Shown piece by piece: positions 8,471-53,786 of a stretch of DNA of 64,000 bases. Position 1 is the first letter of the stretch; every line of letters begins with the position of its first letter. The notes beneath the pieces were generated by a model that made no database searches, was not told the origin of the DNA, and was given only the letters and a program-made list of their open reading frames with translations. Position numbers and translations under genes: made by a program. Location: the NCBI GenBank assembly GCA_017427985.1, contig JAFRRS010000013.1, positions 4,565 to 68,564 of the forward strand, in the 5' to 3' direction. This stretch comes from Bacteroidales bacterium. Lineage in GTDB: Bacteria; Bacteroidota; Bacteroidia; Bacteroidales; F082.

Positions 8471-8472
8471 AA

Positions 8473-9687: not shown

Positions 9688-9733
9688 AATTATTTGCCTT
9701 TTTTGCTAACTTTAAATTGTTGTATCACAACTT

Positions 9734-10642
9734 CTATTTCAGTAATTTGGAGAAAACGTCTGAATACTTAAGAATATTCTTTCTGATCTCCTTGATATCT
9801 TCATCATTAAAAGTTTTATCTCCTTTTTTCGTTATAAGAACTTCCTTCCCTTCCACTACTTTACTTACACAATGTGCCAATTGATTCCTGATTTCAACAA
9901 TTTCTGCCATATAGTCTTCAAAGAAGTTCGCGCGAGTAGGAGAATATAATTCTTTTGGGATTATATAGTTAACAGCTTTCGCCATTTGGGCTGATTCCAT
10001 ATTAGGTATTACTTCTTGTATCGGTATGCTTTTCCATTTGTGATAGCAAACCTTCTCCTTTTTACCACATCCATCCAAAGCATTCTTTATTCTTTCTTCT
10101 TGTTTTCTTGTTATATGATCGTGAAAAGTTTTTATTAGAATGTCTGTCTCATTCTGGACATAATATTTGTTTATCAAATCTAACATTATACCATCTAATT
10201 CGCTCACTTCAGCCATCACGAGCCCACGTAAATTATTCAAATCTTGAACTTTTCGAATGGTTGTCTGAATAACTACTTTTATCTTGTTTAAAAACAAGTC
10301 TTTATCTCGCCCCGAAAAATAGACACCTTCCAAATCCAAAGCTTGAGCTTTTTGTTTGATCTTTTGAAGCCCATCGGCAGAATAGAACACAACATCCGTA
10401 TAAATTTCTTTGTCTCGGATATTTTTTATCAGTAAATCTCCCGAAGGTTCGGTTTCAAGGTTTAAATCCATTAAAATGAGATCGTAGTTATTATATTGGA
10501 TTGTATCATCTTGTTTGGAATACAAATCCCAATTTAATACCAAACCATAGTCTCCTTCAACAATCTCTTTAAGATCGTCTTCTATGGATTCAGCCCAATC
10601 CGAATCATTTTCAACCCAAAGTATCTGATATTTTAATCTCAT
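9734..10642 (-). CDS. receiver (REC)-like protein with a C-terminal helical HEPN-like domain (R252-N-Q-L-A-H257)
   Basis: The N-terminus reads ILWVENDSD ... DLILMD59LNL ... VVFYS88A, which fits a CheY-like fold. The C-terminal ~160 aa is all-helical and carries RNQLAH (nt 9872-9889). A 2-nt gap separates it from the upstream kinase-like gene. Confidence 0.55.
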   Translation of the reverse strand: MRLKYQILWVENDSDWAESIEDDLKEIVEGDYGLVLNWDLYSKQDDTIQYNNYDLILMDLNLETEPSGDLLIKNIRDKEIYTDVVFYSADGLQKIKQKAQALDLEGVYFSGRDKDLFLNKIKVVIQTTIRKVQDLNNLRGLVMAEVSELDGIMLDLINKYYVQNETDILIKTFHDHITRKQEERIKNALDGCGKKEKVCYHKWKSIPIQEVIPNMESAQMAKAVNYIIPKELYSPTRANFFEDYMAEIVEIRNQLAHCVSKVVEGKEVLITKKGDKTFNDEDIKEIRKNILKYSDVFSKLLK

Positions 10643-10644
10643 AT

Positions 10645-13218
10645 TCAGAATATTATATCTAATTTTAACCCTTTTCCTTTGTTATTGTTTTGAGAACGAT
10701 AGGCCGTATCAATAGAAATAGAGCCTTTCAATTCTTTTTCAACAAACATTTTAGCATTAAACAACCCCAACCCAGATCCTGACGTTGTAGTTACTCCTTT
10801 CTCGAAAATATCCTGTTGATTTTCTAAACTATTTGCAATGCCATGTCCATCATCAAAAATGCTCATTTCAATTTGACTGCCCTTTTGAGAAAACACAACA
10901 TTGAAATGACGAGCTCCGGCTTTGATGGAATTAGAAAGAAGATTGTCAATTAATAGGTTTAACTCTAAAGGACGAAACTTCATAATGCGTTTGCAATTGT
11001 TTGTTTTACAAATGAGATTAATTTCTTCGTAATAATCCGGAAGCACGGATGTCAAATACTGATTTACAAACTCCACAATATCTGCGTCCAAAGATTCTCC
11101 TTCCACGTTAAAATTGGCTTTTGTGGCAAATCTTGAAATGGACAGCACCTTTCTATTTGCCTTGGAAATACGCTCCAACGCTTTAGTGAGATTACCTTTA
11201 TCTATTGTACCCTTATACAACTGTTTGATGATACTGTCCAAAGAATTCTGGATCGTATGCGCATTCAATCTGATATCGTGATGATACTTGATAATTCTAT
11301 CTTTATCGAGATTATCTACCGATTGCAGGAAAAGATTTTGTTTTGTTTTTTGATCAAGTTTTTTCTCTGCTTTTTTTCTCTTTTCTTCTTCCTCTTTTCT
11401 TTTCTGTTCAGCTTCTTTACGAAGCAATTCTTCTTCCCGTCTTTTAAGCTCTGCTTCTTTTGCTTGCAATTCTGCTTTTCGTTTTGCCTCGGCTTCTTCC
11501 TCTTTTTTCCTCTCTGCCTCTATTCTTTTAATTGTTTCTTCTTGGGCTTTGCGTTCAGATTCCTCTCTCTTTTTCTCCGCTTCGATGGCTCTTTGTTCAG
11601 CTTCCTCTTTTTCTTTTCTGAGTTTTCTTATATGTTGTTTTGCTTCGTCGATGCTCAGAAGCATATTTTCATCATTTGTGCTTTCAGCGATTTTCTCAAG
11701 ATCGTTGAGAAATTGAGGTTTTATGTTGTCAATCTCTTCTGGATCAGACAGAATATTTGCAAGATCTTTGTTGTAAGAGACGATTTCAACATTTTTATCA
11801 CGAGTAAGGGTTTTTATGAGTTGAATAAAATCTATCTTACTTCCAATGCTTGAATTAATCAAATAATTGGGATTGTCGTTCTCCTTATCATTTTCGAGTA
11901 GTTCTTTTCTTCTTTCCAGAGCTTCATTGGCATCTTTAAAATATTCTTTTTTCAAAAAAGCTTCGCCCCAAAGCACACCAGAAACATATCTCTCCAATCT
12001 TCTATGAGCAACTTCGAAAAGATTAAAAAGTTGTTGTGAAGTTTGGGTTTCAATCAATCCTCCATCGCGACTTGACACCTCCTTCAGTTCCTCAACATTA
12101 TCTGTCAAGACATCAACCCTGCCAAACAAATCACGTGTTCCAAGAAAACGATTATGTCCTTGTTGTGCACGGTAATCGAGCCCCCAGCTGTCATCTCCGG
12201 TATTGCCAAATGGCATTATCCTAAATCCATTTCTGAATAAAAAAACCGAACCATAATTAACAGGTTCAATGCCCATTAATCTGGTAAAATTATTTTTTGC
12301 AGAACGGTTTAGGAAATAGAGATTGATACTAACATCCTTCAGTTTGTCAAAAGAATTGTTTTTCTCATGAATAGTGTACATCTCGACCCCGCGATCGGTA
12401 AGTGTTGTGGTAATGTGATCGGGAGACAATTTCACATCTATCTGGGTCGTTTTTAGATCAAGAATGCTTGTTATACTATTTTTTAAAATCCCATTGACCA
12501 ACTCTCTTTCGTGTTTGCCTTTCTCAATACAACTCTTATCCTCAGCGAGCTCTCTATTGCACTTTATTTCGATGCCGAAATCACTCGTTTCCGCAAAAGG
12601 ATTGATTAATTTTTCAAGAGAATGCTTGAGATCCAATAAACGTTTCCTGTTCCAAGGCATTTTTTCATCATTCAGCCTTTTAATCTCAAGAATAGTTCCG
12701 TGTGTCTCTTTTTCAGGAAAAATCGCATTAGAAGTAGTTAAGGTATCGTGTCCTACATTAACATTAGCAAATTCTAAATTCTGGTCAATTTCGAAATCGG
12801 TCCAATCAACTTGAATAATTTCAAGCGTGTTTGAAGAAACACTTTTTGTCTTTAGTAATAATTCTTTGCCCAATCGATCACATGAAAAACGCCCAATACC
12901 TTTGGCTCCCGCATAATGACGCCTGATTTTATCTCTATATGATGTTTGTTTGTCATCTGAATCGTTATCTTCAGTACCATCCTTCTTAGCTGAGTACCCT
13001 AAAAAAAGCCATTTCTTTTTTATATCTTTTAAAGACATTCCCTTGCCATTATCTGCAATAATAATTTTGTCGTCAAGGAATTCTATTTCCACTTTTTTTG
13101 CGTAAGCATCATAGGCATTTTTCACCAACTCAAATATGGCCACATTATCATTGATAATTAAATCTTTACCAACAAGATCTTTTAAAGCCGAACTAATTTT
13201 AAACTGCAGCTGTTCCAT
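10645..13218 (-). CDS. dual-GHKL protein: N-terminal MORC/MutL/Hsp90-class ATPase, E/K/R-rich helix, C-terminal histidine-kinase core
   Basis: N-terminal motifs: ELVKNAYDA, ADNGKGM, GAKGIGRFS. Residues 531-622 are almost pure E/K/R/A/Q. The H-box-like segment is YHHDIRLNAHTI (aa 645-656). The kinase core has N-box DNLLSNSIKA, G1 DDGHGI and G2 GSGLGL. No TM segment or signal peptide is present. Confidence 0.65.
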   Translation of the reverse strand: MEQLQFKISSALKDLVGKDLIINDNVAIFELVKNAYDAYAKKVEIEFLDDKIIIADNGKGMSLKDIKKKWLFLGYSAKKDGTEDNDSDDKQTSYRDKIRRHYAGAKGIGRFSCDRLGKELLLKTKSVSSNTLEIIQVDWTDFEIDQNLEFANVNVGHDTLTTSNAIFPEKETHGTILEIKRLNDEKMPWNRKRLLDLKHSLEKLINPFAETSDFGIEIKCNRELAEDKSCIEKGKHERELVNGILKNSITSILDLKTTQIDVKLSPDHITTTLTDRGVEMYTIHEKNNSFDKLKDVSINLYFLNRSAKNNFTRLMGIEPVNYGSVFLFRNGFRIMPFGNTGDDSWGLDYRAQQGHNRFLGTRDLFGRVDVLTDNVEELKEVSSRDGGLIETQTSQQLFNLFEVAHRRLERYVSGVLWGEAFLKKEYFKDANEALERRKELLENDKENDNPNYLINSSIGSKIDFIQLIKTLTRDKNVEIVSYNKDLANILSDPEEIDNIKPQFLNDLEKIAESTNDENMLLSIDEAKQHIRKLRKEKEEAEQRAIEAEKKREESERKAQEETIKRIEAERKKEEEAEAKRKAELQAKEAELKRREEELLRKEAEQKRKEEEEKRKKAEKKLDQKTKQNLFLQSVDNLDKDRIIKYHHDIRLNAHTIQNSLDSIIKQLYKGTIDKGNLTKALERISKANRKVLSISRFATKANFNVEGESLDADIVEFVNQYLTSVLPDYYEEINLICKTNNCKRIMKFRPLELNLLIDNLLSNSIKAGARHFNVVFSQKGSQIEMSIFDDGHGIANSLENQQDIFEKGVTTTSGSGLGLFNAKMFVEKELKGSISIDTAYRSQNNNKGKGLKLDIIF

Positions 13219-14494
13219 GTTGTAGCATATTTAATAAAACTTCCCCCGCCAATTCCGCAAATAAAGGCGGAATGGCATTCCCAATTTGGGTGTAACGGGG
13301 TACTTCCAACTTGCGCATCTTGCCGCCAGTGGTATATTTCTTTTTAATCTCATACCAATCGGGAAACGATTGGATACGGGCACATTCACGAACGGTCATG
13401 ATGCGAGGTTCTGAATAGTGCAAATAGTCATCTGGACTGCCGGTAATGGTCGGAGAGACCACATTGGAATCCAAAATGGTGATGCCACGCTGCTTGATGC
13501 CCCATTGCTCACGTGTCTCTCCGTCAATTCGTTTGCCACGTTGCGGATATTCAGATAGCAAGCGTTTGTAGCAATTGATTTTATCTGGTGTTTGTTTGGC
13601 AAAACTGTGGCTATCTGCTATTCCATGCGTTTCTGGATAGTCGCCTCGCATCAACTTTTGGTATGCCGTCGGTTTCTTCTTGCCATATTTTCCGGAATAA
13701 AAGCCTTTGCGATCTGGTGTGGGTTCTTCTCCGTTGGATCGAAGCAAGTCAGAAATTGCGTCCTGCAAAGTGTTGGTGGACTTTAAGCCTTTTTGCGCCA
13801 GAAACGCATCTCGATTGGCTTTTAACAAACCTTCGAAACAATCAGGCGTTCCTAACTCTTTTCGAATTCCAACAAGAATAAAACGCTTGCGACGTTGAGG
13901 GACACCATACTCTGAAAAATCAATCACATGTGGTTTCACATTGTAACCCAAATCTCCCAACCCACGAATCACTTTGAGGGAATAGGGTTCATTCTCGGAA
14001 GAAGCCGATTTCCCTTTGTCGAAAGCATAAGTGAAGCCTTTCACATTCTCAAAAAGGATCATTTTAGGTCTAACTAAGTCGATGAATTTTATATATGAAA
14101 ACACCAACTGGTTTCTTACATCTTCTTCAACACGTTTGCCAGCCATAGAAAAACCTTGGCAAGGCGGTCCGCCAGCCACTAAGTCCACGTTCCCACGCAA
14201 AGATTTCAGTTGCTCCGAATACTTTTCCAATACCTCGTTGATGTCGTGTTCGGTTTTAGGCAGCCATTCCGGCCAATCAAAGTGGTTCTTGTTATCAATA
14301 AGGTTGTATTTTAATGTTTCAAAAGCAAATGCGTTTTTCTCAATAGCGAACAAGCCATGCCATCCCGATTGATAAAGCCCCAAAGACAAACCTCCACAAC
14401 CCGCAAATAGATCTATTACCGTACGAAACGCCAACTGTTTTCCCTTTTCAACAGAAGACAACTTATTATTACTCTTATAGTTAGCGTTTTTCAT
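13199..14494 (-). CDS. DNA (cytosine-5)-methyltransferase (MTase 1)
   Basis: Motifs read: I DLFAGCGGLSLG, IV GGPPCQGFS, VI FENVKGF, VIII QRRKRFILVG, IX TVRECARIQSFPD, X IGNAIPP. The stop overlaps the start of the kinase-like gene by 20 nt. Confidence 0.9.
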   Translation of the reverse strand: MKNANYKSNNKLSSVEKGKQLAFRTVIDLFAGCGGLSLGLYQSGWHGLFAIEKNAFAFETLKYNLIDNKNHFDWPEWLPKTEHDINEVLEKYSEQLKSLRGNVDLVAGGPPCQGFSMAGKRVEEDVRNQLVFSYIKFIDLVRPKMILFENVKGFTYAFDKGKSASSENEPYSLKVIRGLGDLGYNVKPHVIDFSEYGVPQRRKRFILVGIRKELGTPDCFEGLLKANRDAFLAQKGLKSTNTLQDAISDLLRSNGEEPTPDRKGFYSGKYGKKKPTAYQKLMRGDYPETHGIADSHSFAKQTPDKINCYKRLLSEYPQRGKRIDGETREQWGIKQRGITILDSNVVSPTITGSPDDYLHYSEPRIMTVRECARIQSFPDWYEIKKKYTTGGKMRKLEVPRYTQIGNAIPPLFAELAGEVLLNMLQHGTAAV

Positions 14495-15366: not shown

Positions 15367-18300
15367 TTATCTCACCACAATTTTTTGTGTTTGTTCGTTT
15401 AATTTCAAAATGTATACGCCAGTTTGTAAAGACGTTTCAGGAAACGTCTCCACCCCATTTACGCGCCTGCTTGCAATCATGCGCCCCATCACATCGAAGA
15501 TTTGCAGCTCGCCTTCGCCTGTGATAATTATTTCAGCACCATTTTGATAGGCAAAATGCCCCTGCAGAGACGCAAAATTTTGCGTCTCTGCAAACACGAT
15601 TATAAACCTTTCTTGTCTATCGGTTGGCGAACCGATGAAGGTGTAGCGGTTGTTTTCGGTTAAATCAACAACAACATCTTCTAATCTATCGATTAATTTT
15701 ATGTCCGGTAGAGACGTTTCCTGAAACGTCTCACCCAAACGCGAAAAATAAGACGTTTCAGGAAACGTCTCTACGGAAATGGTATATTGTCCCATTTCTT
15801 TCGCCTTGAAATTCAGCGGAATCTCGCCCTGGCGGCTGCTAGAAACCATAGCGTAATCCTTGCCGTCTTGCGGGACGTATAATTTTGTGCTGCCGTCGAA
15901 GACCTGCAATTTCTCCATTGTTTTCTTGCTGTCGAAACGCACTATTGCGCGGTCGATGACGCTGCCACGGTTTCCTTTGCTGAGGTTGATGACTACCTGT
16001 CCTGATTCAGATTTTTGACCGCTGCCTTTGCCTGGCGCTTCGGTGGTGAATGTCAGCGTCTCACCGTCTTCGTCCGCGTGAACGAAGATGCCTTCCATAG
16101 CTTCAACATGGTAATCAGCGCGTTCAGCGAGTACAATTTCGCTGCCGTCGTCGTTCATAACATAGAAATCGCGGTCGATGTAAGCCGTTTCAGCAAACGG
16201 GTTGCCCACGAGGTTCCAGCCTTCCATTTCAGCACCCGGTGTCTTGGTGAGGGTGACCGTACCATCACCGCTGTAATGCTCGCCGTTGAAGGTGAGCGTC
16301 ACATCTTCGCTGTTGGCATAGAGATAGCCTCTTCCCTGCTCAAGGTCGAAATGATAGTGGTCGGATTCATCTGCCTTCCAGTTTTCCCATTCCGCATCGG
16401 CGGCTTGGTTGAAGCGGTATAGGTCGTAGGTGTTTTTGGTGAGGCCATTCACATCTGTTGGGAAGACGTCATTAGCCAAAGGCGAAGCGATGAGGTTCCA
16501 GCCGTCATTGCCATCGGGAGTGTAATGTGCTATGTCGAGAGTGACTGTTTGTTGGGATTCAACTTTCTTGTAAAGCGAAAACGATCCGCCAGTATTTGTT
16601 GTAGAGCAATCGAAACCTATGATCTGTCCGTAAGTATTGTGATATCTAAGATAAGGATAGCTTCCACCGCACCTGAAATCGTAAACGGATGTCCCCTCCA
16701 CCGTCCAGAGACCAAAGCCATCGTTATGGTCATTTGCATTTTCAACTAAATCAACCTTGTAGCAAAAATAATATGCTGCGTATTTTTGGGCTTCAGCGCT
16801 GTAGATAGTCCAACGGTCGTCATTTGGGGCGATGTGCCAAACAATGTCTGTTTGGTCTGTAGTAATCACGTCATCAATCGCAGTAACATTCGTATATTGG
16901 AATACACGGTTCATTAACATGCTGCTCATGGCAGCGCCATCTTTTACAATCAGATAGTCGCCTTCAACAAGGTCTCCGCTGAATAGTTCATAATGGTCAC
17001 CAGTTGGAGTGCCAGGCTCCACAGTGGCACTGACAGTCACGTTGGCATCGGGCATCACGAAGGAAAAAACGCCGTTGTCAGGCTCGATGTTGTAGTCGTT
17101 GCCGCCGTAAGAGAGGGTGGCTGAGGTGAGCTTATAGCCTTCTTGTGCGCCCAGCGTGACGGTATATCCGACACTGCTATAGATGTAGGTGGTATTGCCG
17201 TCGTTATATTTAATGGCATGGTTGCCAAAGCCGATGGCGGTAATGCCGCTCACGTTGTAGATGGTTTCCTCGCCTTTGAGGATGACGCCCTCGCCGAGAG
17301 TGATGGTGCGGGCGCGGCGAGCGCCGTCAATGTCGTTGCCCCTTACACCGCCAGGCACTATGGCACTGGTGGTGTTGTAGTAGTTGTTGGTGTAAAAGCA
17401 CTGATACATGTTACCGCCAATTATTGCGCCACTACTCTCATCGGAGATGACGGCAGTGCCGGTGTAAAGGCAGTTACAGACGATGGTATAGCAATCGTTG
17501 TTATAGAGTTCCGTGTTGTTGCCTACGATGCCGCCATACAAACGGCTAGCCGTTGACTCCACTCTGTTTTCGATGACGGTAGCGCCACTGACACATCCGA
17601 CCACTGAGCCCAGGTTATAGCCCGCGATGCCGGCGTGGCGAGGTGAAACGTCACCACCGGCATAGATGTTGACGCTATTCTCCACGCGGCAGTTATAAAT
17701 GATCCCTGTGTTGAGACCCACGATGCCGCCAACACTAGCTCTCCCAGCGAAGGTACAGTCGGTGAGGGCAACGTTCCTAACGGTAGCCGTAGTGTTATCG
17801 GTATCATAACCAATACGGCCGAAAAGACCGACATTTTCGTCGTTCCAGTTAACCCAGATGCCGCTTATGGTGTGGCCGCCGCCGTCATAAACGCCATTGA
17901 AAGTGTTTGCTAATTGGCGTCCGATTGGGACGTAGTTGTTTTCTGTGCCGTCATAAACCAGGTCGACTGTCTGGAGGAAGAACTTGTCGCTGTAATCGTT
18001 GCCTTCATTGACCTTGGTTGCCAGCCTATCCAAATCAAGGGTTGTTCTTATCAGGAAGGGGCTTTCAGCGGTACCATCACCGCTCCATGGGGCAATTTCG
18101 ATGATGGCTGTAACGGTGACATCCTTGTCGGGCATGTCGAAGGTGTAAACGCCGGCAGTTTCGGTTACAGCGACATCGTTGTTGTTTGAATCTTTCACGC
18201 TGAAACCGGCAAATGCGTAGTCATCGGGTGCAGTGCCGGTGTAATCGAGGGTTAGCGTCTGTGTGGCGCCGCTGAAGATAGGGTTGTTGCTACGACGCAT

Positions 18301-19752
18301 GGCGTAGTTGCCTGTGCCGATTGCGATGATAGCACTGACATTGTAAACGGTCGGGTCGCCCACAATGACGACATCCTCGCCAAGATTGACGGTACGGGCA
18401 CGGCGCGCGCCGTCCACGTCGCTGCTGTTGACGCCGCCGAGGTTGATGTTGTTATAATAGTTGTTGGTGAGATTAGAGCCTGCATTATAACCCGTGATAG
18501 AGCCGATTTTGTCGTCGCCGGTGACAATGGAACCGGTATAGAGGCAATTCTCTATAGTGCCTTCGTCGTTTTTGCCCACTATGCCACCGAAGTACTCGCA
18601 GCCACTCTTGCCATTATTGCTGACAGCAGCGCCGCTGAAGCAGCCGATGACTTTGGCATCGCTGGTATAATTATAACCAACTATTCCACCGTGGTACAAA
18701 GCATTACTGTGTCCGGCATGGATGACAACGCTGTTATTCACGCGGCAGTTCTGCACTGTGGTGAAACCACTTGCATTTCCATTGGAGAAACCAACGATAC
18801 CGCCAACATAATTATATCCCGTGAAGGTGCTGCTGGCAAGGATAACGTTTCGCACAGTGCCGGCAGAAATGCATCCGAAGAGACCGACACTACTGTCGGC
18901 ATCGGTGTTTCCAGTACGGTTGACAGTGATATTGCGGATGTAGCGTCCCTGACCATCGTAGGTGCCAGAGAAACAGGCAAAGTCATTTTCGTTATTGTAA
19001 TAGCCGATAGGGACGTACGTGTCATCACAATTGATGTCCTGTGTCTGCAAGAAAGAGAGGTTTTCACAGTCGTTATTACCGATATTGACGTATGAGGCGA
19101 GCACGGCGAGGTCGCGCTTCGACGTGATGTTATAAGTGTTGGCACTCGGACTGGTGAGCAGGGTAATAGGCGCCAAATCGGTGTAGGTAATTGCAATCCT
19201 GCCAAACGAGCTCCTCGAATTGAAACTCTCCTGCAACTGGTAGGCGTAGTCGAATGACGGATTCATGGGATGGTGGTTAATGTCGCTCATGCCGGTATTG
19301 CCTTCGTTGTTCAACATCTCGATTTTAGTGACAAAATAACGTCCACTGCCGCCGGTAACGGTGTAGGTGATGTATTTGTCTATACTCGGGGCATTGATGT
19401 TGATGCCACCTTGATTGCTGATTATTGCATTGCTGCCTGCCTCCCACTGTAAACGCAGGGTGAAGCCGTCGCTGAAGCTGACAGTGTAGTCGCCTGCACC
19501 ATTGCTCCCTCCCCCGTTATTGAGCGAACTCTCGTCGATATTCATCCAGTATAAGTTCTCATAGCCGTCAAATGGCATGTCGCTGCCATCGGCGCGGGAG
19601 AAGCCAACTTCATAGCAGTGGTAGTTTTGGTTGTAGTTCGCACTGCTGATTCTGTAAATCACGGTTTTGGTAGTAGCTTGTGCTATCTGCCCAAAAGCGA
19701 CTGCCATCACAAGCAGCAACGCTGCAAAAACTCTTGTGTATAAAGTCTTCAT
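15367..19752 (-). CDS. T9SS-sorted GLUG-repeat surface protein (1461 aa)
   Basis: Signal peptide MKTLYTRVFAALLLVMAVAFGQ. There are two GLUG-type modules (VGGIVG...NC...GGIVG). The T9SS-type C-terminus reads ...LQIFDVMGRMI...GVYILKLNEQTQKIVVR. Confidence 0.8.
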   Translation of the reverse strand: MKTLYTRVFAALLLVMAVAFGQIAQATTKTVIYRISSANYNQNYHCYEVGFSRADGSDMPFDGYENLYWMNIDESSLNNGGGSNGAGDYTVSFSDGFTLRLQWEAGSNAIISNQGGININAPSIDKYITYTVTGGSGRYFVTKIEMLNNEGNTGMSDINHHPMNPSFDYAYQLQESFNSRSSFGRIAITYTDLAPITLLTSPSANTYNITSKRDLAVLASYVNIGNNDCENLSFLQTQDINCDDTYVPIGYYNNENDFACFSGTYDGQGRYIRNITVNRTGNTDADSSVGLFGCISAGTVRNVILASSTFTGYNYVGGIVGFSNGNASGFTTVQNCRVNNSVVIHAGHSNALYHGGIVGYNYTSDAKVIGCFSGAAVSNNGKSGCEYFGGIVGKNDEGTIENCLYTGSIVTGDDKIGSITGYNAGSNLTNNYYNNINLGGVNSSDVDGARRARTVNLGEDVVIVGDPTVYNVSAIIAIGTGNYAMRRSNNPIFSGATQTLTLDYTGTAPDDYAFAGFSVKDSNNNDVAVTETAGVYTFDMPDKDVTVTAIIEIAPWSGDGTAESPFLIRTTLDLDRLATKVNEGNDYSDKFFLQTVDLVYDGTENNYVPIGRQLANTFNGVYDGGGHTISGIWVNWNDENVGLFGRIGYDTDNTTATVRNVALTDCTFAGRASVGGIVGLNTGIIYNCRVENSVNIYAGGDVSPRHAGIAGYNLGSVVGCVSGATVIENRVESTASRLYGGIVGNNTELYNNDCYTIVCNCLYTGTAVISDESSGAIIGGNMYQCFYTNNYYNTTSAIVPGGVRGNDIDGARRARTITLGEGVILKGEETIYNVSGITAIGFGNHAIKYNDGNTTYIYSSVGYTVTLGAQEGYKLTSATLSYGGNDYNIEPDNGVFSFVMPDANVTVSATVEPGTPTGDHYELFSGDLVEGDYLIVKDGAAMSSMLMNRVFQYTNVTAIDDVITTDQTDIVWHIAPNDDRWTIYSAEAQKYAAYYFCYKVDLVENANDHNDGFGLWTVEGTSVYDFRCGGSYPYLRYHNTYGQIIGFDCSTTNTGGSFSLYKKVESQQTVTLDIAHYTPDGNDGWNLIASPLANDVFPTDVNGLTKNTYDLYRFNQAADAEWENWKADESDHYHFDLEQGRGYLYANSEDVTLTFNGEHYSGDGTVTLTKTPGAEMEGWNLVGNPFAETAYIDRDFYVMNDDGSEIVLAERADYHVEAMEGIFVHADEDGETLTFTTEAPGKGSGQKSESGQVVINLSKGNRGSVIDRAIVRFDSKKTMEKLQVFDGSTKLYVPQDGKDYAMVSSSRQGEIPLNFKAKEMGQYTISVETFPETSYFSRLGETFQETSLPDIKLIDRLEDVVVDLTENNRYTFIGSPTDRQERFIIVFAETQNFASLQGHFAYQNGAEIIITGEGELQIFDVMGRMIASRRVNGVETFPETSLQTGVYILKLNEQTQKIVVR
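15430..15449. repeat. GAGACG-family hairpin H1 (AGACGTTTC-ag-GAAACGTCT)
   Basis: 9-bp stem with a 2-nt loop, inside the CDS. It encodes ..VETFPETS.. in the sorting domain. Confidence 0.9.
15563..15592. repeat. GAGACG-family hairpin H2, a 30-bp perfect palindrome TGCAGAGACGCAAAA|TTTTGCGTCTCTGCA
   Basis: Read directly. It encodes AETQNFASLQ and is identical to H6. Confidence 0.95.
15711..15732. repeat. GAGACG-family hairpin H3 (GAGACGTTTC-ct-GAAACGTCTC)
   Basis: 10-bp stem. The left flank is GTA, as in the GTAGAGACG consensus. Confidence 0.9.
15751..15770. repeat. GAGACG-family hairpin H4 (AGACGTTTC-ag-GAAACGTCT)
   Basis: 9-bp stem with right flank CTAC. It lies 18 nt from H3. Together the two encode VETFPETSYFSRLGETFQETS. 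Confidence 0.9.
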
Positions 19753-20010: not shown

Positions 20011-20046
20011 TTATTTAATTTTTAATTGTTATTCTCTTTTTTATTA

Positions 20047-20131
20047 GTTTCCTCACCCTTTCAGGGTTCGGAATGACAACAGTCTTTGCTAACCAAACAC
20101 CCTTGTCATTCCGACCGAAGGGAGGAATCTC
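20047..20131. repeat. inverted pair of REP-like units (..CGGAATGACAA / TTGTCATTCCG..)
   Basis: Unit 20047-20078 and unit 20104-20131 are mutual reverse complements with a few mismatches. A 25-nt spacer separates them. The pair sits just downstream of the 2333-aa gene stop. Confidence 0.8.
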
Positions 20132-20133
20132 TC

Positions 20134-23100
20134 CTATTTAATGATTATTTTCTGTACGTTTTCGTTTAATTTCAGAATGTAAACGCCGGTTTGCAGAGAC
20201 GATGTGCACATCGTCTCTGCACCGTTGACGTGTTTCTGTATTATCATGCGGCCCATCACGTCGAAAACTTGCAATTCGCCTTCGCCGTTGATGATGAGGT
20301 CGGTGCCTGATTGATAGGCAAAATGGCCCTGCAGAGACGCAAAATTTTGCGTCTCTGCAAACACAATTGTAAACCTTGATTGTCTATCGGTTGGTGAACC
20401 GATAAATGTGTATCTGTTGTTTTCGGTTAAATCAACAACAACATCTTCTATTTTATCGAATAATTTTACGTCCGGTAGAGACGCGCCATGGCACGTCTCT
20501 ACAGAGATGGTATATTTCCCCATTTCTTTTGCCTTGAAATTCAACGGCATCTCGCCTTGGCGTTCTGAACCGACAATAGCGTAATCTCTGCCGTCTTGCG
20601 GGATATACAATTTGGTGTTGCCGTCGAAGATCTGCAATTTCGTCATGGTGCGGTCGCTGTCGAAACGCACGATGGCGCGGTCGATGACACTGCCGCCGTT
20701 TCCTTTGCCGAGGTTAATCACCAACGAGGCATCATCGCCACGGTTGCCTTTTACGTTTTTCGAACTTGGAGTGAATGTCACAACATCGCCGTCAGCATCT
20801 GCATGAACGAAGATGCCTTCCATCGCGTTAACGGTGGTGCTCATTGCAGGAATAATCTCCGAACCTTCTGCATTCATACAATAAAAATCTTTATCGACAG
20901 TGGCATTCTCACCCCACGGGTTACCCACAAGGTTCCAGCCTTCAAAATCAACATTATCGGTCTTGGTGAGCGTGACCTCGCCGTCGCCGCTGTAAGGTGC
21001 GCCTACAAAGTTGAGAGTCACATCGTCGCTATTGGCGTAGAGGTAGCCTTGACCATTTTCCAAAGCATGGAATGGATTCTCATTGTCATTTTGATGGGAT
21101 TTGTAGTTTTCCCATTCCGCAACGGCCGATTGGTTGAAACGGTAAAGGTCGTAGGTGTTGCTGGTGAGATTATTCACATTCGTAACCCAGGTTTTTCCTG
21201 CCAAAGGAGAAGCGATAAGGTACCAGCCGGTTTTCACGTTGTTGTCAGCGCCATAACCCACGATGTCTTTTGACAAGGTGACTGTATTCGGGGCTGCGGT
21301 GAGATACCCTGGATCGCTATAACCGCCATCAATGTGTGCATATCTAACATCATTGTTATTCCAATCATATGATGTATCCATGCCGCCCTTCAAACTTTGA
21401 CATGCATAAAACATTCCCTCACTATCATCAATATACACTTTGTCAGTGTTCCATAATGTGCTGACATAAATAGTGGTGAGGTCGTAGCAATAGAGGAACA
21501 TGCATGCCATATTTCGTACTTCCGATGTGTTCCACCCAGAAAGGTCTAATGTGGTAAGTTGATGGCATTCGCTGAATAAATATGACATATCTTGTACTGC
21601 CGACGTGTTCCACCTGGAGATGTTTAATGAGAACAGTGCCGTGCAGTGGGAAAACAATCCATCTAAATCAGTGGCTTTGGAGGTATCCCATCCAGAGAGA
21701 TCTAATGTGGTCAGACTTGAGCAGCCAGTGAACATATTACTCATGTCGACCACTTTGGATGTATTCCATTCAGAGACACCCGTAATTGTGGTCAGTTCAT
21801 CGCAACCGAAGAACATTTGCTCCATTGTTGTAACATTTGCGGTGTTCCATCCCGATACATTAATTGTGGTAAGGTTGAAATTGCTGACGAACATCATATG
21901 ACAACTTGTCATATTGTCGGTGTTAACATTGTGAAGGTCAATGCTCGTGCAGTTTTTCATAAAATAGAACAATCTAAAACAACTGCCTGTGAAACTGACA
22001 TTGCCGGTGGCGGTAACACTTGTAACCTCCGTTGTCACGACGTCGTCGCCCCATTTGTTTTCAGAGTTAAACTCACCCCAGTTGAGCGAAAGCGCTCCGG
22101 TGGTGCTGTCGTAGGTGTAGCGCGCCAAGACTTCCACTGTGACAATGGCATCTTCGTCAGCCACAACAAAAGTGTTGCCGGTGATGTAATTGCCGTTAAC
22201 TAAAAACAGCGCGCGCTCTTCATCAGGAACAGTGCCTGTGTAGCTCAATGTGACCTCGGTACCAGTTGTGTAGTATGAAACGTCGTTGAAGCTGGCAACC
22301 GCGGTGGCGGTGGCGGTTATGTCATCGCCGAGTGTGATGGTGTAAACCTGACGAGCACCATCCTGGTCGCTCGAAGCGCTTGAGCCGCCGTTCTCGCTGC
22401 CCACACCTACATTTGAGGCATTTGCTGTGCCTGCCACGGTGCAGTTGTAGTAGTAGTTTTGGCTTAGGTAGTTTCGATTATGACCAACGATTGCTCCTAC
22501 ATATTTACCCACTTCCGGAATACTTGCTTCCAACACAAGACAATTCTTGATTTCTCCATAATTATAGCCTACAATACCACCATAACCATTATGATCAGAA
22601 CCACCATAGGTAATACTTGCTGAACATGTGCAATCCGTAATGATTCCTGCATTTGAATTTAAACCTGCAATGCCTCCGTGATTATCGCAATAAGATCCAT
22701 GGATATTGACGGTGCCCGTAACGTGACAGTTTTGCAGTGTGCCATAGTAGTTTCTGCCGGCGATGCCACCTGTTCTGATTCTACCGTTAATGCGAGTGTC
22801 GGAAAGGGTTAGATTCTTAATAGTTCCATTGCCCAAATAGCCAATTAAACCAATATCGTCATTTAAAGTGTTGTAAATGCGGATACCTCTAACGGTGTAG
22901 CCACAACCATCTAAACTACCATGGAATACATTGTTTAAATTGCCAATGGAAGTGTAGTTGTTCTCAACACTTGTGGCATCGTCCCAGTTTGTAGTGTATG
23001 AATAAGTGATATCGTTGCCCAACTTAAAATGCTTTTTATAGAAAGTGTTGGCTGTGTAGCTATCGGTGCCGTTCACGTTCTTGGCCAATAGGTTGAGACC

Positions 23101-26100
23101 GGTAGTGGTGGTGATGATATATGGATGCTCCTCACTGCCGTCGGCGCCGTCAGCGATACCCCACACGTCGGTGAATGTGGCGCTGACAGTAACATCAGAT
23201 GCTGGCATTTCAAAACTGTTGCCGCTGATGGCATGGATGCTGCCGTCGTCGTATGAGTAAGCTAAGTTATATCCGGTGTTAATAGTGCCAGTATAGCTTA
23301 GTGCGACGTTCTGCGTGGCACCGCTGTAGATAGTGGTAGTGGTGCCGTTATTGTAGCTGATAGCCTTGTTGCCTATGGCGGTGAGGCCACTCAAGCTGTA
23401 AACCGTCTGGTTTCCCGCCAAGGCGATGTTTTCTTCCAATGTGATGACTCGTGCACGACGGGCACCGTTGCAGTCGCTTTGGTTCACACCGCCAATGCTG
23501 GAGGTGTAGTAGTTGTTTGTCAGGGTACCCCCATTATTAGTGCCGACAATGGATCCCCTACTTCCACCATTATGTATAGTACCAATAAAGATGCAGTCTT
23601 TTATAGTGCCTTGATAAGTGTTTCCCGCAATTCCGCCGAAGTTAGATCCGATACCATCAGTGAGGGTGGCTGCACTGACACAGCCACTTATAGTACCATA
23701 AGACTGTTTTCCCACGATGCCGCCATGATAAGACACACCATCTTTACAAAGGCGAATGGTCACATCGTTTTCCACACGGCAATTTGTCACGGTACAATGA
23801 TTAGTTTCTCCAATGATACCACCCACATTTTGAGCGCCGACAATAATGCTATTGGCAAGTATGACGTTCTTAACCGTACCATGACTAACTTCTCCGAATA
23901 TACCTTGATATCTTTTGTCAGTACGGATACGAATGCCGCTTATAGTTTTGTTGTTGCCGTCGAAGTTGCCGCAGAAGTATTTATTAAGGCCGATAGCGGT
24001 GTAGTTGCTCTCGTTTGCGCCCAGACCTTCATAGCTGTATGTGATGTCGGCACCCAATTTGAAATGCTTTCCATTGAAGCTGTTGGAGGTGTAGCCATCG
24101 ATGCCGTTCACATTCTTGGCCAATAAGTCGAGACCTGTGGTGTTAGTAATAATATATGGATGCTCCTCAGTGCCGTCGGCAGCTGGTGTGTTGGTGACAC
24201 CCCACACGTCGGAGACGATGGCGCTCACACTGACGTTATTGTCAGGCATGGTTAGAGTGTTGCCATTGACAGTGGCGTTATTTGTGGCAGTAAAACCGGT
24301 GCATCCGTAACCCAAAGCTGGCACACCAGTGTATCTCAGCTTGACGTTCTGTGTGGCTCCGCTGTAAAGAGTGGTGGTGGTGCCGTCGTTGTAGCTGAGG
24401 GCCGTGGTGCCAATGGCGGTGAGACCACTCAAGCTGTACGCTGCCTGGTCACCTGCGATGGCTATGTTCTCATCCAAGGTGATGACACGGGCACGACGGG
24501 CACCGTCACAGTCGTTGCCGCTGGGGTTTGCTATGCCAACGCCAACGCCCCAAATACCCTCTGTGGTGTAGTAGTTGTTGGTAAGGATGCCTGCGTTTGT
24601 TCCTGCAATGGCACCGTAGTAATTATATGCATCGACGGTGCTTCCAATATATATACAGTCCTTGACGGTACCGGAAGAGGCGTTAGCACCAACGATGCCA
24701 CCATAATAGCGGACGTTAGGCATATCATTTCTGTCGACGATGGCCGCGCTGATGCAGCCGGAGACAGTACCTATGTTCTCACCAACGATGCCTCCATGAT
24801 AAAGAGAAATATAGTCTTTCGGTAATATTTCAACAGAACCTTCTATGCGGCAATTCGTCAAGATACCATTATTCCGACCTGCGATGCCACCGACATTAGT
24901 TTTGCCTTTAAATATGCTGTTAGCAAGGACGACGTTCTTCACCGTGCCATTGATACCGACACTTTTGAATACACCTTGGGAATCGTTGGTAGTGTAGATT
25001 CGGATGCCGCTGATGGTCTTGTTGTCGCCGTCGAATGTGCCGTGGAATTTATAGCTGCCAGTGCCGATGGGAGTATAGTTGCTCTCATTCTCGTCGAGGC
25101 CTTCATAGCCATAGGTGATGTCGGCGCCCAGCTTGAAGAACTTGTTGTTGTATTCATTGCCTCCGTTCACGTTGGATGCCAGCAGGTCGAGTTGAGAAGG
25201 ATACATAATGACGTATGGGTCTTCCTCACTGTCGCCGCTGCCTGTCCAAGGGATGGTAGTCCATTGCGCGTAAAGATCGATGATGGTTCCGTCCTCGGTG
25301 GTGAGACCTAAGACTTCCTGGCTGTTACTGTAGCTATCGCCGTTTCCGCCAGGCTGGGTGTTCCATCCTGCAAAGCTGAATCCCTCGCGACTGAAAGCAT
25401 TGGCGGTGAGATTCTGCGCCACGCCATATTCGAAGACCTGATCGCTCATCGTCCCTGTAACAGGGAAGACAACACTTCCATTCCCATTGAATCGGAAGGT
25501 GTAGGTGCTCCAGCGAATTGGGAAAGTGGTGCTGAGTGAGCCGGTGTAGCTGCCAGTGCCAGTGGCGGTGACAGTGCCGTTGCCAGCCGAGGTGTTGTTA
25601 GCCCATGCTAAGGTGTAGTTAGTGGCCTCAGTGAGTTGCACACGGTTAGAGTTATCCATGATACCTTTATAGAAATACACCGTCGGATGCGGCTCGATGG
25701 CAGTGGTGTTCACCACATATTCGTTTGCCAACCCAGCGAAAGAGGTATTGGTGGCGGCAAGAGTGTAAGTGGCTGTGCAGGTGACACCTGTAAAAGTCTT
25801 GTTGAAACTACTGTTGCTGCCTTGATAATAGTTACCCGAAAGGTCGTTGAAGAGACTGTTGTTGATGCCTGTAATCGCCAAGGTGGTACCCGCCGAAGCG
25901 TTGATGATGCCCTTGTAGGTGATGACGTTGGTGTAGTCGCCTGCGACATATTCCACATCGCCCCATGTTGTATTCAACTTTCTGTACGCTCCCGAGACAT
26001 GCACAATCTCGCTGAACGGCACGCTGATATAGAAAGTGTTGCCTTTGACGTATGGACCAGCTGATACGGTGATGTATGATGTGCTGTTGTTAAAGAGCGT

Positions 26101-27135
26101 CGGCAATGCTATATCGACAGCTTGGATGTGAGCCTTGACGTTCTTGGCATACCAGTCGTCGTCTCCCGAACCCGAGGCGTTGAGGCGAATCACAATGGTG
26201 TCAAATGTCGTGGGCACGATGAGACGGCCGTCGCCAGCACGATAATTCGACTTGAACAATTGTTTTGTGAGGGGGTGGGTCGTTCCGTATCCCCAGGGGT
26301 TGGTAGCGCCTTCATTGCTGCCTACAGTGGTGACGGGGAACGAGTAGTTTCGGTAGGTATCGTCGATGCTTCCGGTATTCATCTCAAATCCTGCCGTGTA
26401 GCGCGAGAGGCTTGGAGTGCCGGGATTACCGTTTTGGGGGTTGAGGGAGGTGCCAGGGCGGCTGTCGCAGCTAACGGTGTTGTCAAACAGTATCTGCAGG
26501 TACTGGTAGCCGTCGTCTGACTCCTTGGCATCGAAGGATAGCGTCATGCGCAACTGGGCACCGATGGCTTGGAAATAGGCCTTGGGTGCGGCATTGTTGA
26601 AATAGTTGCTGCTGAGTGCGTACTTGTATCCGTTGTCTAAATAGCCATCGTCGGTGACCAAATAGGCGCTCGATTGGATGGTGACCGTTTTCTCAGCGAA
26701 GACGCCAGACGTGGGAACACTGGTGCCGTTGGTGAAGGAGCGGTCGTAATAAGCCAGCTGGAATCCGTTGACGTCGAGCACCTCGAAGCGATAGGAACGC
26801 TGACTGGTGCTCTGATATTTGAAAGCCTCGGTACCCGCCGCACTTTCAGTAACTTCCACTATCTTGGTAGTAATGCCTTCAGGGAAGGTGTAGTCGTTGC
26901 TCACTGCAGTGTAGTGCTGTCCGGCATAAGCCGAGAGGTTCACCGTGCGGTATTTGATGGTCTGCTCCGGCAGACTGCTGCCGCTACGCGTGATGGTGAA
27001 CGTGGTTTTGTGGGTGCTGCCGTTGTGCGATGCCTCAATGGTGAAGGTCTGAGCCCAGACAGTCTGTCCAAAAGCGACAGCCGCCATAATCATTATCGTT
27101 GAAATGATCTGCTTGAAAGTAAAAGTTTTTTTCAT
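20134..27135 (-). CDS. giant T9SS-sorted multidomain adhesin-like protein (2333 aa)
   Basis: It has a signal peptide and a Calx-beta-like N-terminus (YRTVNLSAYAGQHYTAV..FPEG). A Listeria/Bacteroides-type repeat is present (GFSFAGWNTQPGG). There are three GLUG modules and BspA-type LRRs (CSSLTTLDLSGWDTSKATDLDGLF). The T9SS C-terminus reads ..LQVFDVMGRMI..GVYILKLNENVQKIIIK. Confidence 0.85.
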   Translation of the reverse strand: MKKTFTFKQIISTIMIMAAVAFGQTVWAQTFTIEASHNGSTHKTTFTITRSGSSLPEQTIKYRTVNLSAYAGQHYTAVSNDYTFPEGITTKIVEVTESAAGTEAFKYQSTSQRSYRFEVLDVNGFQLAYYDRSFTNGTSVPTSGVFAEKTVTIQSSAYLVTDDGYLDNGYKYALSSNYFNNAAPKAYFQAIGAQLRMTLSFDAKESDDGYQYLQILFDNTVSCDSRPGTSLNPQNGNPGTPSLSRYTAGFEMNTGSIDDTYRNYSFPVTTVGSNEGATNPWGYGTTHPLTKQLFKSNYRAGDGRLIVPTTFDTIVIRLNASGSGDDDWYAKNVKAHIQAVDIALPTLFNNSTSYITVSAGPYVKGNTFYISVPFSEIVHVSGAYRKLNTTWGDVEYVAGDYTNVITYKGIINASAGTTLAITGINNSLFNDLSGNYYQGSNSSFNKTFTGVTCTATYTLAATNTSFAGLANEYVVNTTAIEPHPTVYFYKGIMDNSNRVQLTEATNYTLAWANNTSAGNGTVTATGTGSYTGSLSTTFPIRWSTYTFRFNGNGSVVFPVTGTMSDQVFEYGVAQNLTANAFSREGFSFAGWNTQPGGNGDSYSNSQEVLGLTTEDGTIIDLYAQWTTIPWTGSGDSEEDPYVIMYPSQLDLLASNVNGGNEYNNKFFKLGADITYGYEGLDENESNYTPIGTGSYKFHGTFDGDNKTISGIRIYTTNDSQGVFKSVGINGTVKNVVLANSIFKGKTNVGGIAGRNNGILTNCRIEGSVEILPKDYISLYHGGIVGENIGTVSGCISAAIVDRNDMPNVRYYGGIVGANASSGTVKDCIYIGSTVDAYNYYGAIAGTNAGILTNNYYTTEGIWGVGVGIANPSGNDCDGARRARVITLDENIAIAGDQAAYSLSGLTAIGTTALSYNDGTTTTLYSGATQNVKLRYTGVPALGYGCTGFTATNNATVNGNTLTMPDNNVSVSAIVSDVWGVTNTPAADGTEEHPYIITNTTGLDLLAKNVNGIDGYTSNSFNGKHFKLGADITYSYEGLGANESNYTAIGLNKYFCGNFDGNNKTISGIRIRTDKRYQGIFGEVSHGTVKNVILANSIIVGAQNVGGIIGETNHCTVTNCRVENDVTIRLCKDGVSYHGGIVGKQSYGTISGCVSAATLTDGIGSNFGGIAGNTYQGTIKDCIFIGTIHNGGSRGSIVGTNNGGTLTNNYYTSSIGGVNQSDCNGARRARVITLEENIALAGNQTVYSLSGLTAIGNKAISYNNGTTTTIYSGATQNVALSYTGTINTGYNLAYSYDDGSIHAISGNSFEMPASDVTVSATFTDVWGIADGADGSEEHPYIITTTTGLNLLAKNVNGTDSYTANTFYKKHFKLGNDITYSYTTNWDDATSVENNYTSIGNLNNVFHGSLDGCGYTVRGIRIYNTLNDDIGLIGYLGNGTIKNLTLSDTRINGRIRTGGIAGRNYYGTLQNCHVTGTVNIHGSYCDNHGGIAGLNSNAGIITDCTCSASITYGGSDHNGYGGIVGYNYGEIKNCLVLEASIPEVGKYVGAIVGHNRNYLSQNYYYNCTVAGTANASNVGVGSENGGSSASSDQDGARQVYTITLGDDITATATAVASFNDVSYYTTGTEVTLSYTGTVPDEERALFLVNGNYITGNTFVVADEDAIVTVEVLARYTYDSTTGALSLNWGEFNSENKWGDDVVTTEVTSVTATGNVSFTGSCFRLFYFMKNCTSIDLHNVNTDNMTSCHMMFVSNFNLTTINVSGWNTANVTTMEQMFFGCDELTTITGVSEWNTSKVVDMSNMFTGCSSLTTLDLSGWDTSKATDLDGLFSHCTALFSLNISRWNTSAVQDMSYLFSECHQLTTLDLSGWNTSEVRNMACMFLYCYDLTTIYVSTLWNTDKVYIDDSEGMFYACQSLKGGMDTSYDWNNNDVRYAHIDGGYSDPGYLTAAPNTVTLSKDIVGYGADNNVKTGWYLIASPLAGKTWVTNVNNLTSNTYDLYRFNQSAVAEWENYKSHQNDNENPFHALENGQGYLYANSDDVTLNFVGAPYSGDGEVTLTKTDNVDFEGWNLVGNPWGENATVDKDFYCMNAEGSEIIPAMSTTVNAMEGIFVHADADGDVVTFTPSSKNVKGNRGDDASLVINLGKGNGGSVIDRAIVRFDSDRTMTKLQIFDGNTKLYIPQDGRDYAIVGSERQGEMPLNFKAKEMGKYTISVETCHGASLPDVKLFDKIEDVVVDLTENNRYTFIGSPTDRQSRFTIVFAETQNFASLQGHFAYQSGTDLIINGEGELQVFDVMGRMIIQKHVNGAETMCTSSLQTGVYILKLNENVQKIIIK
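20192..20221. repeat. GAGACG-family hairpin H5, a 30-bp perfect palindrome TGCAGAGACGATGTG|CACATCGTCTCTGCA
   Basis: Read directly. It encodes AETMCTSSLQ, at a position homologous to H1. Confidence 0.95.
20330..20359. repeat. GAGACG-family hairpin H6, identical to H2
   Basis: The sequence is TGCAGAGACGCAAAATTTTGCGTCTCTGCA. Confidence 0.95.
20475..20502. repeat. GAGACG-family hairpin H7 (GTAGAGACGCGCCA|TGGCACGTCTCTAC, one mismatch)
   Basis: It encodes VETCHGASL, at a position homologous to H3/H4. Confidence 0.9.
21435..22040 (-). repeat. BspA-type leucine-rich repeat block inside the 2333-aa CDS (approximate bounds)
   Basis: The protein shows repeated ..C..LTT(I/L)(D/N)(L/V)SGW(N/D)TS.V..M..MF units. 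Confidence 0.6.
22160..25260 (-). repeat. three tandem ~1.03-kb GLUG modules inside the 2333-aa CDS (approximate bounds)
   Basis: Each module begins (S/E)EE(D/H)PY(V/I)I... followed by ...LDLLA(S/K)NVNG. Antisense ORFs at 23066 and 24101 share the N-terminus MPFTFLAN and lie exactly 1035 nt apart. Confidence 0.7.
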
Positions 27136-49028: not shown

Positions 49029-49035
49029 GGGGTTA

Positions 49036-53604: not shown

Positions 53605-53644
53605 TTTAATTTAATTTTAATCCCGAAATAAATTTAACAATATC

Positions 53645-53780: not shown

Positions 53781-53786
53781 CGGCTG

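Follow-up and report, generated by a model that had tools for sequence, protein, structure and literature searches.

Probable double-foot REP elements in frame within type IX secretion cargo genes of a Bacteroidales bacterium, with probable replacement of one palindromic subtype by another between paralogues

A stretch of 64,000 nt from a Bacteroidales bacterium of the F082 lineage (assembly GCA_017427985.1, contig JAFRRS010000013.1, positions 4,565 to 68,564, forward strand; here called the window) carries palindromes of 28-30 nt in frame near the 3' ends of genes for cargo proteins of the type IX secretion system (T9SS). We identify them, with a probability of about 0.8, as double-foot repetitive extragenic palindromes (REPs) in which one subtype has replaced another, rather than as hairpins maintained by compensatory substitution in situ. 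[quoted passage not shown] Double-foot REPs are a known kind of element, and Bacteroidales T9SS cargo genes are a new host context for them. An earlier note, made from the sequence alone, had proposed instead that the inner stems had undergone compensatory changes at homologous codons, so that selection acted on the hairpin and not on the peptide. The genes and palindromes concerned are as follows, the positions 1 to 3 being homologous alignment positions in the two paralogues.

20134-27135, minus strand: host gene 1, for a 2333-aa secreted protein with DUF285, GLUG and Por_Secre_tail (26.4 bits); the palindromes lie within its last 125 codons.
20192-20221, H5, position 3 of the 2333-aa gene: perfect palindrome of 15+15 nt with arms TGCAGAGACGATGTG and CACATCGTCTCTGCA, that is, TGCAGAGACG-ATGTGCACAT-CGTCTCTGCA; in frame on the minus strand, encoding AETMCTSSLQ.
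20330-20359, H6, position 2 of the 2333-aa gene: perfect palindrome of 15+15 nt with inner CAAAATTTTG, encoding AETQNFASLQ.
20475-20502, H7, position 1 of the 2333-aa gene: 14+14 nt, GTAGAGACG-CGCCATGGCA-CGTCTCTAC, with double foot GTAG/CTAC and one mismatch, encoding VETCHGASL.
15367-19752, minus strand: host gene 2, for a 1461-aa paralogue of the 2333-aa protein; Por_Secre_tail 22.2 bits.
15426-15453, H1, position 3 of the 1461-aa gene: inner TTTCAGGAAA on the plus strand, TTTCCTGAAA in sense, with degenerate foot and outer stem, encoding VETFPETSLQ.
15563-15592, H2, position 2 of the 1461-aa gene: the same as H6 in every base, encoding AETQNFASLQ.
15708-15774, H3/H4, position 1 of the 1461-aa gene: the TTTCCTGAAA subtype present twice, once in each orientation, encoding VETFPETSYFSRLGETFQETSL.
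50362-53604, minus strand: host gene 3, for a 1080-aa DUF4465 protein unrelated to the other two; Por_Secre_tail 47.7 bits.
50526-50553, in the canonical T9SS tail of the 1080-aa protein: candidate REP copy with inner CAAAATTCTG, encoding IETQNFASQQ.
50384-50411, in the same tail, between the last two strands: decayed candidate copy in the other open frame, GRDTKSCVFT.

The coordinates, the translations, the correspondence of the three positions between the paralogues and the identity of H6 with H2 are all as the earlier note had given them. The outer stem GAGACG/CGTCTC, which it described as kept, is already degenerate at H1 (AAGACG...CGTCTC). A chance origin of the palindromes was rejected: the pattern GAGACG-N(0-30)-CGTCTC is matched six times in the window against an expectation of 0.10, and none of 100 shuffles reached six. 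The copies, 8-9 in total, all lie in the 3' ends of the three genes with T9SS tails, and none of the palindromes was found elsewhere in the 64 kb. Their length is within the short-hairpin size (20-40 nt) expected of REPs. The feet are GTAG...CTAC at H7 and at the outer ends of H3/H4, GCAG...CTGC at H5, H6 and H2, and GTAA/CCAC at H1, and the single mismatch of H7 is C.A on the plus strand, which is G.U on the mRNA strand. H3/H4 are a single subtype repeated as an inverted dimer, in which a spacer of 19 nt parts two 24-nt arms of 100% complementarity. Whichever way the palindrome is oriented, two of its three frames are open (V-E-T-x4-S-L-Q or R-D-x5-V-S-T), and the third holds TAG. A covariance-model search of Rfam assigned the palindromes to no family and returned only sub-threshold look-alikes of miRNA precursors (at most 37.5 bits against a threshold of 70).

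The 2333-aa and 1461-aa proteins are true paralogues, with 64% identity across the C-terminal 400 aa, and in the flanks of their palindromes 100 of 500 positions are different (20%). Within the palindromes, the inner 10-mer differs at 8 of 10 bases at position 3 (p = 8e-5) and at 6 of 10 at position 1 (p = 0.006), and at position 2 none of 30 bases differs. That the inner stems differ on both arms, as the earlier note had observed, is real, but the change is wholesale and not gradual. Both arms would change together in a swap because every subtype is itself a palindrome. The differences between the paralogues are REPLACEMENTS. The identity of H6 and H2 needs no selection, since it falls in a local tract of low divergence, with differences at 5 of 38 third-codon positions as against 47 of 128 elsewhere (p = 0.005). 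A gene-conversion tract bounded by the REPs themselves was considered for this region and rejected, as the tract begins inside the segment between positions 1 and 2 and ends about 20 nt beyond H6. The 1461-aa gene also carries three copies of one subtype (TTTCCTGAAA) across two sites.

The same gene pair, in the same arrangement, is found in a second metagenome-assembled genome (MAG), RGIG7852 (JAFZKP010000043.1; locus L123). There, the counterpart of the 1461-aa gene (81% identical) has GTAGGGACG-TGCCATGGCG-CGTCCGTAC at position 1 and, at position 3, a decayed copy of the type that encodes VEKPSQ. In the counterpart of the 2333-aa gene (97.7% identical) none of the three copies has been lost, and the only change in them is a single loop substitution. 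Subtypes have thus turned over within this syntenic pair, as read from the sequences of the two genomes. The three TTTCCTGAAA copies, together with the different states in the syntenic relative, point to subtype replacement. An origin of identical 10-mers by convergent compensatory evolution is not credible, and one by copying and replacement is.

A profile built on the C-terminal module found 73 loci in a search of GTDB genomes, essentially all in rumen or gut Bacteroidales MAGs, and 89 homologous tails were compared. Many of the tails are free of hairpins at all three positions (e.g., L121, L124, L127, and L133), and in others the hairpins are intact or decayed. At position 3 at least five subtypes occur, encoding MCTSS, CHGAS, WRAAS, FPETS, and VEKPSQ, all in one codon register. 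REPs are found in other loops of the module as well, for example at GRDGACTVST about 140 residues from the C-terminus. The commonest subtype at position 3, VEKPSQ, is GAGACG-GTTGAAAAAC-CGTCTC. L158 and L159 have this hairpin intact; in most of the others it is eroded, and the peptide stays similar. Deep conservation, with a hairpin at position 3 in every homologue, was rejected, given its absence from L121 and many others and the decay of most of the VEKPSQ lineage.

The inference of compensatory substitution depended on inner-stem differences being paired more often than chance in a larger alignment. In the VEKPSQ lineage at position 3 (21 distinct sequences), 59.3% of cells are paired, against 59.3% in shuffled alignments, a value reached by 343 of 500 shuffles. 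A single double change is present, and almost every other change destroys a pair. For compensation in situ, this is the outcome that the earlier note had named as refuting its view. When the subtypes at position 3 are pooled, covariation returns (0.337 vs 0.144 shuffled; 0 of 500 shuffles). Since the covariation is lost within a lineage and comes back on pooling, the signal lies between subtypes and not within them; at one codon position within one lineage, the hairpin merely decays. Nor does compensation at homologous codons describe the sites themselves, whose inner 10-mers are either replaced or identical, with subtypes that are seen again at further sites, between genes and in the DNA of other genomes.

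A functional role for the hairpins, as mRNA structures (a 3'-end stabiliser, or a translation pause before the secretion tail) or as DNA structures of these genes with true compensatory changes, has to be weighed against these counts. The hairpins are very stable: as RNA, single ones fold at -14 to -24 kcal/mol with z-scores from -3.4 to -7.6, and H3/H4 form a single long hairpin of -49.7 kcal/mol (z = -9.8). All three T9SS-tail genes of the window carry copies and nothing else in it does, the 2333-aa gene retains all of its copies between the window and L123, and among the homologues there is one possible stepwise double change. The retention, however, is like that of the surrounding DNA, with 1 change in 88 nt of REP and 13 in 509 nt of flank, values that are not distinguishable. 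The first three mismatches noticed were all G.U on the mRNA strand, a promising signal that disappeared in the wider count: unfiltered, the mismatches on that strand number 27 G.T and 37 A.C (p = 0.26), and among clear REPs counted by hand about 6 and 13, respectively. With pairing within a lineage no better than in shuffles and many homologues free of hairpins, a functional structure appears improbable to us, and the distribution of the palindromes outside these genes, described below, argues in the same direction.

The palindromes belong to a dispersed family. Viral contigs were scanned with only the outer sequence fixed (AGAGACG-N10-CGTCTCT), which gave at least 120 loci. Among the matches listed, the majority read GTAGAGACG-N10-CGTCTCTAC, most copies lie in short open reading frames (ORFs), that is, between genes, and discrete inner types recur (CGATTAATCG, CAAAATTTTG, CGCCATGGCG, TTGCATGCAA, CACGGCCGTG, and others). 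In 47 distinct copies with GT..AC feet, again among the matches listed, complementarity at the five inner pairs is 83, 100, 94, 55, and 85%, where chance would give 25%; the inner sequence of the listed matches without feet looks largely random. Covariation of the inner stem in 55 distinct members, chosen by outer sequence only, is 0.326 against 0.085 when shuffled, a value that none of 500 shuffles reached, and slid controls gave 0.04-0.09. Changes on both sides at three inner stem pairs were seen in 17, 30, and 33 of the 55 members. This strong covariation across the family arises because each subtype is its own palindrome. The proposal that the hairpin and not the peptide is the conserved unit thus holds at the level of the family, but not as a selected compensatory substitution within these genes.

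The same 28-mers stand in intergenic DNA of related rumen MAGs (e.g., L135:7941, L131:19649, L187:1985, and L193:12771). In those loci and in the viral contigs the palindromes are dispersed and many copies are extragenic, whereas the window copies are all intragenic. In one viral contig (L074, near 9200), two tandem REP copies lie in frame within a phage ORF of 710 aa (GVETQGRASLPAPAEPTIGVETQGLASLPAPAEPT); in-frame REPs are therefore not limited to T9SS cargo or transposase genes. The palindromy reaches the central dinucleotide, pair 5-6 being complementary in 85% and pair 4-7 in 55%, although no pair can form at the centre of a hairpin. This central symmetry points to a cause at the DNA level and not to a selected RNA stem: the palindromes would either have arisen by copying or be recognised by a partner that is itself symmetric. 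Both the unpairable centre and the presence of identical elements in intergenic DNA and around transposase genes speak against a structure serving the host genes.

The earlier note had suggested looking for an association with genes for hairpin-binding, transposase-like proteins, and such an association is found: the same class of palindrome occurs inside and beside RAYT-like Y1 genes. Adjacency was assessed for the palindrome class in loci from related MAGs and metagenomes. Two genes were recognised in related MAGs.

L141:3444-3911 (Bact_22): RAYT-like Y1 gene with motifs NHIHLI, SWQERYNDHIIRN and YIENNP; NF047646 60.5 bits.
L149:6887-7480 (RGIG9752): RAYT-like Y1 gene, 197 aa, with motifs NHIHLI, GWQDSYHDHIIRD and YIVLNP; NF047646 53.1 bits.

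In both proteins NHIHLI is the HuH motif and the Y motif is YHDHIIRD or YNDHIIRN, and their sole NCBIfam match is NF047646, REP-associated tyrosine transposase. Both genes have GTAG palindromes in frame within the gene and directly past the stop codon. At L141:3735-3990 the stop codon TAG is itself part of the GTAG foot of the downstream REP; this gene lacks about 36 residues found in L149 and may be a decayed copy. At L149:6887-10540 a T9SS cargo gene, whose tail is of the same family and contains no intact REP, has the RAYT-like gene with its two downstream REPs about 300 nt upstream.

A metagenome search with the alignment of the two proteins gave 80 loci, in which GTAG...CTAC palindromes occur in the gene itself and up to about 100 nt beyond it in both directions, usually with one subtype per RAYT-like locus and different subtypes at different loci. 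Strict double-foot palindromes have a density of 0.63/kb within the gene and 200 nt to either side, compared with 0.03/kb elsewhere. A strict copy is present within these limits at 33 of the 80 loci, and in 30 of the 33 it is inside the gene. The commonest palindrome class at the RAYT-like loci is GTAGAGACG (22 of 54), and it includes inner CAAAATTTTG, the same as in H2 and H6 and found in L258, as well as CGATTAATCG and TTTCATGAAA, the latter in L196. The form GTAGAGACG-N10-CGTCTCTAC lies inside, or at most about 100 nt from, the RAYT-like genes in, for example, L196, L204, L206, L238, L255, and L258. The palindrome class is thus associated with RAYT-like Y1 transposase genes.

RAYT group 4 (Bertels et al., 2017) is taken here as TnpA_REP subclass 2.4. 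Proteins of this subclass are about 194 aa long with motifs NH[IFV]H, WQ, and YIxNNP; they are abundant in Cyanobacteria and Bacteroidetes, their REPs have a "double foot," and in-frame REP insertions occur within tnpA_REP (Quentin et al., 2018; PMC6006769). In their HuH, WQ-type and YIxNNP-like motifs the proteins of L141 and L149 match this description, and L149, at 197 aa, does so in length. The palindromes of the class agree with subclass 2.4 REPs in being long perfect hairpins with 5' GT[AG]G and 3' C[TC]AC feet, in occurring in Bacteroidetes, in having stem subtypes specific to the locus, and in standing beside and in frame inside the transposase gene, features that were found again in the 80 loci. 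They differ in that the window copies are in frame in T9SS cargo genes, at recurrent loop positions and with turnover of subtypes, in that there is no transposase gene in the window, and in that some of the window feet are GCAG.

Intragenic REPs have been described before, with subfamilies that differ by complementary stem changes and with a GYAG foot variant (Di Nocera et al., 2013; PMC3733652). Like the palindromes of the window, the GTAG/CGTC REPs of that study are in frame in otherwise normal proteins, adding 10-30 residues there, occur as singles or dimers and form complementary-stem subfamilies. Unlike the double foot of the window copies, they have a single unpaired GTAG tail, and their hosts are mainly genes for DNA repair and replication in Opitutus, Rickettsia, and Thauera; a Bacteroidetes GTAG family and secretion-tail hosts are not reported there. 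Rickettsia palindromic elements, as cited in PMC3733652 from Ogata et al. (2000), are also in-frame palindromic selfish DNA, tolerated by proteins at surface-exposed positions. RPE-1, however, is about 100-150 bp long, confined to Rickettsia, without a known transposase partner and of other sequence. In Escherichia coli, the REP/BIME sequences with their RAYT (TnpA_REP, PDB 4ER8) are alike in principle, a Y1 HuH enzyme recognising a GTAG-footed single-stranded hairpin that it can cut and rejoin, and the inverted REP dimers of E. coli resemble H3/H4. The E. coli REPs, however, are imperfect, bulged, single-footed and extragenic, and their enzyme belongs to subclass 2.2, not 2.4. Literature searches for the literal GTAGAGACG and CGTCTCTAC returned only unrelated primer matches, and pairing "type IX secretion" with "extragenic palindrome" returned nothing relevant.

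Within the ORFs of the window, a T9SS-type tail is found only in the three host genes. The PF18962 match at the extreme C-terminus is above the cut-off of 27 bits in the 1080-aa protein; in the 2333-aa and 1461-aa proteins it covers the last 48 residues and is slightly below the cut-off, and homologues of these two have precomputed PF18962 matches and NCBI names of the type "T9SS type A sorting domain." Modelled with AlphaFold over its last 188 residues (pLDDT 76), the module is predicted to form two beta-sandwich halves. The peptide at position 1 (residues 67-75) falls in an inter-strand loop (67-77), that at position 2 (115-124) in a low-confidence linker (115-127) joining the two halves, and that at position 3 (161-170) at a strand end and in the next loop (161-171), so that all REP-encoded peptides occupy predicted loops or linkers. 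The loop at position 3 is a permissive spot and a general hotspot for length variation. In other subfamilies (L176 near 10480, L177, L179, L194, and L187) it holds slipped short tandem repeats, such as GCATTCC x3 and TGCCAAC x3, encoding peptides such as AFRIPHSAFS and ANCQLPTANFS. The T9SS sorting domain proper is cut off after export. Insertions near the 3' ends of T9SS cargo genes may thus survive because the loops tolerate them and the sorting domain is removed. Gene 3' ends are favoured by REPs in general (PMC3733652). The C-terminal module of T9SS cargo looks like a tolerant and preferred landing place for REPs, in a sample of homologous loci that, having been picked through the tail itself, carries no estimate of enrichment in T9SS tails. 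Public gene calls cut the large cargo proteins into several ORFs (L121:6669-10789 and L122:566-2217), and most homologous tails have no precomputed Por_Secre_tail match; REP-encoded inserts may add to the sub-threshold scores.

For better-studied relatives of the subclass 2.4 enzymes, the target is the hairpin that a REP forms in single-stranded DNA; the enzyme binds it, and cuts and rejoins at the foot. In the rumen Bacteroidales lineage, in-frame copies would have become fixed where the C-terminal module of T9SS cargo has loops and linkers that tolerate insertions, and one subtype would have replaced another at the same site between paralogues. The swap may proceed by exchange at the shared feet and outer stems, either through RAYT cleavage and rejoining or through gene conversion on the 9-bp shared arms, and the copies would persist as tolerated passengers and not for service to the host gene. 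That differing subtypes keep a constant register suggests an exchange at the feet or arms that they share, and we regard the specific mechanism, exchange at feet and outer stems, as evenly poised between right and wrong. To our knowledge, RAYT-type movement or exchange of REPs has never been directly shown. A bolder version is that the feet of REPs in coding sequences are site-specific exchange points, at which a RAYT-like enzyme, or recombination primed by the 9-bp arms, swaps whole REP cassettes in exact codon register. The common register of the subtypes at position 3, the presence of one subtype at two sites, and the low-divergence tract at position 2 are compatible with it without proving it, and we think it unlikely. 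If it were true, T9SS cargo genes would carry programmable loop cassettes, and the palindromes would be breakpoints that shuffle or homogenise secretion tails.

Several observations weigh against the identification as REPs with subtype replacement. The window has no intergenic copy, all of its copies being intragenic, an unusual situation for REPs. Three of the copies are footed GCAG/CTGC, a GYAG variant known for REPs but off the GTAG/CTAC consensus. A tblastn search of the 64-kb window found no Y1 or RAYT homologue, so that the RAYT link comes from related MAGs and metagenome loci, and the L141 and L149 proteins are below the cut-offs of the families concerned (80 bits for NF047646; 22.8 against 23 for Pfam Y1_Tnp). 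The codon register of all subtypes at position 3 is identical, which requires either site-specific exchange or very old occupancy. REP-bearing loops are just 1-3 residues longer than the REP-free loops of homologues, and therefore a simple insertion of 28-30 nt does not fit the event. In the REP-free loops, the native residues V-E/Q-T and V/I-S-T coincide with the palindrome arms; either the loops have been occupied by REPs for very long and the "native" forms are eroded REPs, or REPs enter by exchange at arm-like sequence. Lastly, the series ATGTGCACAT to ATGAGCACAT to ATGAGCTCAT (L157, L161, and L126) resembles a genuine double change in situ.

That series could be a mirrored change in situ, compatible with correction by template switching. 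In E. coli, the correction of quasi-palindromes by this route is established: intrastrand template switching in replication copies one arm onto the other, so that one-sided changes become mirrored. Applied to the present palindromes, such copying fits the complementarity of pairs 5-6 and 4-7, centre included, better than selection on a hairpin does, and in the series above the mirrored change is at a central position. It offers no account, however, of 8 of 10 inner bases switching at once to a pre-existing subtype, nor of the presence of one subtype in three identical copies at two sites in a single gene, and the decayed lineages accumulate one-sided changes that were not corrected. As the cause of the complementary arms, template switching seems unlikely.

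A link to restriction-modification (R-M) was also considered, the palindromes containing inverted type IIS sites (CGTCTC, BsmBI/Esp3I-like), which the earlier note had mentioned without drawing a link, or LlaJI-like GACGC/GCGTC sites. GAGACG/CGTCTC is present in every copy, the recognition sequence of LlaJI is GACGC (PMC1459862), this motif lies within the CAAAATTTTG and CGCCATGGCA subtypes, and an LlaJI-like cassette is located 6-16 kb away. However, GAGACG outside the palindromes is at expectation (28 observed, 26 expected), as is GACGC in the window (117 against 123), several subtypes lack GACGC (GACGAT, GACGTT), and the family spans many genomes, next to transposase genes, whatever their R-M content. 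Both the type IIS and the LlaJI link were rejected, and we give an R-M origin next to no credence. The cassette is part of the following island.

4021-14494, minus strand: R-M and defence island with Vsr, an LlaJI-like endonuclease (RE_LlaJI), a McrB-like AAA_5 protein, two C5 cytosine methylases, a receiver-domain protein and a double-HATPase protein.

With the palindromes read as REPs, what appeared to be selection on structure inside a gene becomes a recognisable phenomenon of mobile repeats, and intragenic REPs are extended to the T9SS cargo genes of Bacteroidales. The case is also a warning that swaps of palindromic subtypes between paralogues yield covariation without compensatory evolution. 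For annotation, such copies can mean sub-threshold Por_Secre_tail scores, spurious small ORFs (e.g., RDAxxxVST), and fragmented gene calls. Turnover of subtypes in exact register provides a testable handle on the RAYT-type movement or exchange of REPs.

Two further features of the window adjoin the host genes. Directly upstream of the 1080-aa DUF4465 gene is a cobalamin riboswitch, which suggests that expression of this secreted or surface protein may be regulated by B12. A second, longer palindromic family has two copies, each directly downstream of a stop codon, and may be another repeat family or a terminator-like structure.

53633-53805, minus strand: cobalamin riboswitch, RF00174, 82.7 bits.
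20040-20130: second palindromic family, with core GTCATT[CT]CGAC...GGAAT / ...GTCGAAATGAC and nested inverted repeats, downstream of the stop codon of the 2333-aa gene.
48945-49033: second palindromic family, same core and nested inverted repeats, downstream of the stop codon of the 437-aa gene at 49036.

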